Shown here piece by piece: positions 1-559 of a stretch of 4,368 bases of DNA; the first letter of the stretch is position 1; each line of letters opens with the position of its first letter. A model generated the notes under the pieces. The model saw only the letters and a list, made by a program, of their open reading frames with translations. It was not told the origin of the DNA and ran no database searches. The position numbers and the translations under genes were made by a program. Source of the DNA: a virus (lineage: Duplodnaviria; Heunggongvirae; Uroviricota; Caudoviricetes); the IMG/VR virus record IMGVR_UViG_2671180915_000012; one strand, 5' to 3'.

Positions 1-249
1 CAGGAGTTGCTCGACTGCATTTCAAAGCTTCGGGATGATGTAAATGCCCTCACTGTTGCATTTTCATATTTGGCCTTATCAATTCCCAGAGAACAAATGC
101 AACCAACACTGGCATCGCTCCTGCTTGAATCACGCAACCCCAAATGGTCCCAGGAACAACAAAATTCTTTCAAGTGGCTGGCGGCATTACTGGAAGAAAA
201 ATATGCTGGTAAAATTACCATTTCGGTGGAGTCTTCAGAGAATCAGTAA
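1..249 (+). CDS. 3' portion of a protein of unknown function; frame is open to the left window edge, so the 5' end is missing
   Basis: Frame open from position 1 (QELLDCISKLRDD...SVESSENQ) to TAA at 247-249. Composition is protein-like with amphipathic Leu/Glu/Lys-rich stretches. The only in-window ATG in frame (97) has no Shine-Dalgarno, so the true start is probably upstream of the window. The antisense frame is also open but Ser/Cys-rich and looks non-coding. No family recognised. Confidence 0.4.
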   Translation, partial: QELLDCISKLRDDVNALTVAFSYLALSIPREQMQPTLASLLLESRNPKWSQEQQNSFKWLAALLEEKYAGKITISVESSENQ

Positions 250-559
250 TTCTTCCTGGTAGCTTTCCTTTGTAGGTTATCCACACATTCTGCGCCTCTA
301 AAATTACGGGGCGCTTTTCCGGCGACTGCTCATCCCCTTCACATAACCCGGCTGCAACTTCCAGGAAGACCTGTCTGATGCTCCTTCTGGCTGCTGCCTC
401 ATAAAACTCCAGCGCGGCACCTTCAACACGGTCCAGCGAGATGTCCAGGTCAAAAATTTCACCGTCAAAGCGTTTTTTGTCCCTTAATGCTACAGTTACC
501 GCAACTTTATTCTCAAAATTGCGGATCCCTTTCACAATCAGTTCATAGTTTTGTGTCAT
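215..559 (-). CDS. DUF1327-family prophage protein (YdfR-like), 114 aa
   Basis: N-terminal half (MTQNYELIVKGIRNFENKVAVTVAL...DRVEGAALEFYEAAARR) matches my recollection of E. coli YdfR/DUF1327, which sits next to the holin in 21-like lysis cassettes. Start chosen at ATG 559 because GGGGAGAG lies 7 nt upstream; the track's start at 580 is TTG and overlaps the holin. Stop TAA at 217-215. C-terminal tail is longer than the ~103 aa I recall for K-12 YdfR. Confidence 0.65.
   Translation of the reverse strand: MTQNYELIVKGIRNFENKVAVTVALRDKKRFDGEIFDLDISLDRVEGAALEFYEAAARRSIRQVFLEVAAGLCEGDEQSPEKRPVILEAQNVWITYKGKLPGRITDSLKTPPKW

Follow-up and report, generated by a model that had tools for sequence, protein, structure and literature searches.

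The stretch of DNA that we analysed (4,368 nucleotides; hereafter, the window) is part of a Qin-like lambdoid prophage of E. coli. It matches the O55:H7 CB9615 prophage locus, with 99.95% identity over window 1-4270 and 100% identity over window 1-900. Genes for DUF968, for the Q antiterminator, for a class II holin and for a YdfR-family protein share the minus strand, and three more genes lie between Q and the holin (Table 1). In CB9615, the lysozyme rrrQ and then rzpQ lie just past the window's left edge, and in this matching locus rrrQ is 343 nt downstream of ydfR. The ydfR gene thus occupies the lysis-cassette position of its family, in a Q-dependent late operon with a class II holin on one side and a lysozyme on the other. 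At the other end, window 4271-4368 corresponds to the left end of an IS1203/IS629 (IS3-family) element that interrupts the DUF968 gene; the CB9615 locus, which is otherwise 99.95% identical, lacks this insertion. An Rfam cspA thermoregulator (window 1469-1908, minus strand, 156.7 bits) spans the cspB leader and gene.

Table 1. Features of the window, with position, strand and the basis or a remark for each
Feature	Position	Strand	Basis or remark
Convergent 90-aa gene, 3' 249 nt	1..249	+	WP_001315200.1; PHROG 2411; starts 23 nt before the window
Tail-to-tail overlap, 35 nt	215..249		ydfR ends at 215, convergent ORF at 249
ydfR-family (DUF1327) gene, 114 aa	215..559	-	ORF, Pfam, PHROG, CB9615 annotation
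Last two ydfR codons (KW) and stop	215..223	-	part of the inserted module that carries the convergent gene
Tail module, codons 70-112, ...AGLCEGDEQSPEKRPVILEAQNVWITYKGKLPGRITDSLKTPP	224..351	-	frequency, conservation, open frame, predicted disorder
Junction 1, end of K-12 Qin homology	351..352		nt 208 of the gene, inside codon 70
Core-coding part (codons 1-69 + 1 nt), common to K-12 ydfR	352..559	-	homology, protein identity, predicted fold
Class II (P21-type) holin essQ	564..779	-	Pfam Phage_holin_2_1, 115.4 bits; annotation; sequence
Shine-Dalgarno-like GGGGAGAG for ydfR	567..574	-	within the holin 3' end; read from sequence
ynfU, small zinc-ribbon gene	998-1168	+	between Q and holin
cspF		+	between Q and holin
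cspB		-	between Q and holin
Q antiterminator	2683-3435	-	
DUF968 (ydfU-like) gene		-	

The list of open reading frames gave TTG 580 as the start of ydfR. We used the ATG at 559, which is also the start annotated in the CB9615 record and lies 4 nt beyond the holin stop codon. The product matched the Pfam family PF07041 (DUF1327) with 144.9 bits, against a gathering score of 25 bits, with residues 1-112 falling on profile positions 1-92 of 93, and PHROG 406 from end to end (1-114 on 1-114 of 114; E value of 4.8e-67). It is identical to the RefSeq entry WP_000193257.1 from the CB9615 locus, annotated as a YdfR family protein. Members of PHROG 406 and PF07041 with the same architecture are found in O157:H7 prophages and in the phages Chlobot, vB_EcoS-783R2 and phiSTEC1575-Stx2k, and the window allele differs from most of the family only by allele-level substitutions (E67 and D106) and by the KW ending that accompanies the convergent-gene module. 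At these two positions (codons 67 and 106; window 359-361 and 242-244), nearly all homologues have D and G, respectively, and E67 is common to the window allele and to YdfR of K-12.

The K-12 protein (P76160, b1555), encoded by the Qin cryptic prophage, occupies the same place after essQ. BLASTP against it (103 aa) aligned residues 1-74 only, with 82% identity, and the window protein is not a full-length orthologue, since collinear similarity is confined to these residues. The two tails gave no alignment even at an E value of ≤100, and the K-12 tail, EKLSEKVESYLQHQYSFKIENPANKHERPHHKYL, is unrelated to that of the window and shorter. DNA homology with K-12 Qin covers window 352-3763 (93.6% identity) and resumes 10 nt before the lysozyme ATG. 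K-12 lacks the 470-nt block that holds the window-type tail and the convergent gene, and there the ydfR stop codon overlaps the start of rrrQ. The original prediction, made from the letters of this DNA, had read 215-559 as a DUF1327 gene of the lysis cassette with a conserved N terminus of about 70 aa and a tail longer than that of K-12 YdfR, all of which is borne out (114 versus 103 aa). It had also suggested a recombination junction; the break against K-12 Qin at codon 70 is indeed sharp, although the junction nearest to the overlap with the convergent gene is a second one, after codon 112.

A break at nearly the same place is seen in an unrelated contig (L169), where the homologous stretch comprises the convergent gene and the tail, up to window 340 (about codon 73-74). 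Here a coiled-coil N terminus takes the place of the DUF1327 core in front of the tail. The core also occurs by itself, as complete genes of 71 and 72 aa; one more supposed example of 73 aa (P0157) was discarded, as it is cut by the contig end. AlphaFold2 modeled YdfR as three strands (residues 5-14, 18-27 and 33-43) and a helix (50-73), with block-mean pLDDT values of 60 to 82, followed by a segment predicted to be disordered (residues 70-114, pLDDT 30 to 42). The model is weak (mean pLDDT of 56, from 26 shallow sequences), and the predicted disorder of the tail may reflect the thin alignment. As the predicted core ends near residue 73, junction 1 lies at its C-terminal limit.

A tail that is predicted to be disordered, and whose end is set by the module that follows, raises the question of whether it is a functional part of the protein at all. 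The functional protein might be the core of about 72 aa, for which the complete stand-alone genes would be a precedent, and the tail a translated spacer, read through by chance and conserved at the DNA level as a recombination linker or as a regulatory segment upstream of the lysozyme. The pattern of variable sites was odd with respect to codon position (3/15/17), and for this reason a six-frame test was performed on the tail haplotypes. The ydfR frame was open in 31 of 31 and was the only open one, with stops in all 31 haplotypes in four of the other frames and in 30 of 31 in the fifth; a hidden overlapping gene in the tail was accordingly rejected. Nonsynonymous diversity is lower than synonymous diversity in the tail, and the ratio (piN/piS of 0.44 over the 31 haplotypes) is close to that of the core (0.49 overall). 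Constraint on the whole protein (about 0.45 to 0.5) is weaker than that on its neighbors, the holin (0.19) and the lysozyme (0.10), and it is the gap between the latter value and the 0.44 to 0.7 of the tail that would speak for a spacer. Against this, many tail residues are invariant among homologues with cores at only 57% nucleotide identity, whose tails are 87 to 90% identical, and this tail also occurs behind another N terminus. Conserved RNA structure in the tail was rejected as well, the fold being no better than that of shuffled sequences (z score of +0.27), and Rfam found nothing in this segment, its single match in the window being the thermoregulator mentioned above. The tail is translated and selection acts on its reading frame, so that we regard a mere read-through as unlikely.

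The low synonymous diversity of the tail is explained neither by protein function nor by an overlapping ORF or an RNA structure. The piS values were 0.07 to 0.13 in codons 71-110 versus 0.12 to 0.59 in the core, 0.48 in the holin and 0.35 in the lysozyme, that is, three- to fourfold below the flanks. Low values continue into the first 20 codons of the lysozyme (0.17), pointing to homogenization at the nucleotide level, which would also suit a spacer. We would attribute this to the tail being a frequently exchanged, homogenized linker block. The whole low-diversity stretch covers window 224-351 and continues as far as the beginning of the lysozyme gene (about 7810-8351 of locus L001), with piS values of 0.07 to 0.17 compared with 0.35 to 0.55 for the holin, core and lysozyme on its flanks.

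The second junction is located at about window 220-224, right after the residues KTPP (codon 112). In prophages without the convergent gene, homology with the window is lost at this point and regained about 55 nt before the lysozyme ATG, a module of 292 nt in the window replacing 4 to 19 nt in these prophages. The KW ending of YdfR accompanies the convergent ORF in 61 of 62 loci, the remaining locus being cut short. Other endings go with other surroundings: the spacer is 63 nt long after ESQP and 50 nt long after LA, and an ending that begins TALRSE runs into long YdfR forms of 176 to 183 aa. The type of ending therefore tracks the downstream module, indicating that the last two codons and the stop codon of ydfR belong to the inserted module.

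The convergent ORF is a real gene under purifying selection. Its 90-aa product matched PHROG 2411 along its entire length (1-90 of 90; E value of 4.9e-57), the ORF is intact in 59 of 62 loci, and piN/piS is 0.34 over 19 haplotypes. It occupies 1354 places in complete E. coli genomes (1221 genomes, 22% of the total), and three isolated phages carry it too. The complete gene corresponds to 7977-8249 of L001. It is preceded by a ribosome-binding site, AAGAGGA, as read from the sequence, and a scan for promoters and terminators around the gene found none there. It is an orphan restricted to Escherichia/Shigella. AlphaFold2 predicted four helices and a disordered C terminus (residues 80-90, the overlapped part), a fold that gives no clue to the function of the protein.

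The two genes meet tail to tail, and wherever the 90-aa ORF is intact the overlap is always 35 nt, including in the phages Chlobot, vB_EcoS-783R2 and phiSTEC1575-Stx2k. This stretch contains the ydfR stop codon, ten full sense codons and 2 nt more, which agrees within rounding with the "last 11 codons" that had been described as shared with the convergent ORF. Both proteins are predicted to be disordered at the ends that it encodes. An imperfect inverted repeat (GGAAGAAUUAC...GUAAUUUUACC, as an mRNA fold; window about 206-252) brackets the overlap, and each of its arms contains the stop codon of one of the genes; it was not significant in the fold test, nor was it reported by the repeat search. 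The tail and the convergent gene also move together into other lysis contexts (L169, 608-1184; L008, 1501-2083), with a Phage_holin_8 gene or with a second holin pair plus an M15 peptidase.

Regarding function, the absence of any assignment for DUF1327, as stated in the original prediction, is slightly out of date. In a 2026 study, two-hybrid assays showed binding of residues 1-72 of K-12 YdfR to the catalytic N-terminal half of RNase E and weaker binding to RNase G, and the full-length protein co-purified Rne(1-598) together with DNase-resistant nucleic acid (PMC13232886). Group II of that work comprises the binders of the RNase E N-terminal half, Rne(1-597); binding was shown for both forms of the K-12 allele, by two-hybrid data and by co-purification under overproduction (PMC13232886). 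Few transcripts changed when K-12 YdfR was overproduced, and growth was not slowed (PMC13232886). The RNase E-binding fragment (1-72) is the part that the window protein shares with K-12 at 82% identity. The window allele may bind RNase E too, and any role in lysis or in RNA decay would likewise be hypothetical. Phages are known to encode several proteins directed at RNase E, such as Dip/gp37 of phiKZ, gp0.7 of T7 and Srd of T4. If the K-12 result transfers, YdfR would be another phage protein that contacts this enzyme.

The location of the gene invites a different proposal, in which YdfR would regulate the timing of lysis by acting on the pinholin or on the SAR endolysin, with the tail as interaction surface and RNase E not involved. 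In most loci the gene is wedged between the holin and the lysozyme, and it is translationally coupled to the former. Nevertheless, YdfR has no holin-like feature: its Kyte-Doolittle maximum (19-residue window) is 0.84 versus 1.72 for the holin, and no transmembrane segment was found either in YdfR, as a holin or an antiholin would have, or in the convergent protein. PADLOC gave no match at an E value of ≤1 for the 114-aa YdfR, for K-12 YdfR or for the convergent ORF, NCBIfam gave no hits, and a sequence search against solved structures gave no match. Six weak core matches in a protein of 3128 aa (P0159) were taken as spurious, this being a repetitive G2F-domain protein. In addition, the cassette is found beside a different lysis system, the second holin pair plus M15 peptidase already mentioned, and a complete core gene lies in a tail-gene cluster, far from any holin. 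The latter, a 72-aa gene between the Phage_min_tail and Phage_tail_L genes (L170, 449-667), implies that the DUF1327 family is not bound to the holin position. The fixed place beside the holin that had been ascribed to the family is thus true of this locus but not of all members. The lack of a growth defect upon overproduction of K-12 YdfR (PMC13232886) also argues against an effect on lysis. A literature search found no report of a lysis phenotype for ydfR and DUF1327 only in a single genomics paper. Altogether, we give little credence to a regulator of lysis timing.

To evaluate how common the two types of tail are, complete E. coli genomes were searched with window 215-345 as the query for the window type. 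It occupied 6085 places, spread over 2871 of 5426 genomes (53%), with identities of 80 to 100% and up to 8 copies per genome. The K-12 tail was found at 1801 places in 1797 genomes, nearly all at ≥99% identity and with no more than 2 per genome. The window-type tail is therefore more than three times as frequent and far more diverse. The range of identities indicates that it does not come from one recent clone, while the near-clonal K-12 tail fits a single allele of a cryptic prophage inherited vertically. K-12 YdfR is a minority, atypical allele, and the window tail is the majority form.

Other data sets gave the same picture. An ORF for ydfR was identified in 158 of the 168 loci examined, and it encodes 114 aa in 130 of them and 116 aa in 22. 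O157:H7 and other prophages show the order holin, YdfR (110 to 116 aa), a spacer of 42 to 63 nt and lysozyme. The family is found in about 100 phage records, many of them Stx-converting, and Chlobot, vB_EcoS-783R2 and phiSTEC1575-Stx2k are isolated phages with the window-type tail. When 26 homologues were aligned, conservation of the tail as far as KTPP was no lower than that of the core. The C terminus had been described as altered and divergent, and comparison with homologues was to decide the matter; with a conserved C terminus, lengths of 114 or 116 aa in 152 of 158 loci and an end-to-end match to PHROG 406, that description does not stand. A novel tail produced by a local recombination event and marking an unusual locus, as the abrupt loss of homology at codon 70 and the unrelated tails would suggest when only K-12 is considered, can be practically discarded for a sequence that is present at 6085 places in 53% of the complete genomes, catalogued as PHROG 406, found in isolated phages and identical in protein to an annotated RefSeq entry. 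The window protein is an already annotated and catalogued allele, of the majority form, and its apparent divergence is explained by the choice of K-12 as the reference.

Taken together, the data make it quite probable that ydfR of the window is the majority allele of a two-part phage late protein, cut by recombination at codons 70-74 and after KTPP. The first part (residues 1 to about 72) would fold into a small core in which one helix follows three antiparallel strands, and the second (about 73-112) is a conserved and translated tail of 40 aa, probably disordered. The gene lies immediately after the P21-type holin in the Q-dependent late operon, its Shine-Dalgarno sequence being inside the holin gene, and in full-length relatives a SAR-type lysozyme comes next. 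Recombination among lambdoid phages at the domain boundary (codons 70-74) would have given rise to the minority K-12 Qin allele with its unrelated tail. A second site, straight after KTPP, would join different downstream modules, which in the window is the 292-nt block that carries the convergent gene and gives ydfR its last two codons and stop codon.

Mosaic module boundaries and morons are established concepts in the genomics of lambdoid phages, and what we see in the window is routine lambdoid mosaicism, with gene shuffling at a domain boundary. As in those mosaics, homology breaks off sharply, once at a domain boundary and once where a gene ends, and, like a moron, a small, separately oriented gene has been inserted among the late genes. 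What departs from the general concept is that one break interrupts a coding sequence and that the neighboring gene takes its stop codon from the inserted module, with a fixed overlap of 35 nt.

The main value of these results is corrective, as the reference YdfR of K-12 is an atypical allele. Work on it, including the 2026 RNase E study (PMC13232886), informs on the core and not on the tail found in the majority of E. coli prophages and Stx phages. The breakpoints coincide with the boundary of the RNase E-binding fragment, and residues 1-72 versus 73-112 would be natural constructs for studying the function of the tail. Late in infection, a cytoplasmic YdfR core might contact host RNase E/G through the catalytic half of the enzyme, and perhaps RNA as well, with the tail acting as an exchangeable partner-binding or regulatory extension. 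Extending this to the whole family, DUF1327 proteins would be phage late adaptors, in which a core of about 72 aa docks on RNase E/G and exchangeable C-terminal modules set the outcome, for instance, which RNAs or partners are affected; this generalization is speculative and we hold it to be unlikely. Were it true, the 40-aa tail, at times with the convergent four-helix gene as a cassette, would be an unrecognized functional module, and the low piS from codon 71 to the lysozyme start would reflect selection on this module or its frequent exchange.

A search for repeats around the junctions found short matches only, likely due to chance. In O157-type ydfR, a direct repeat, CTGAAGACT, flanks the last codons (L004, about 2480-2510, versus L005, about 2495-2500), and a YdfR variant of 110 aa that ends in SLKT looks like a deletion between two copies of it.
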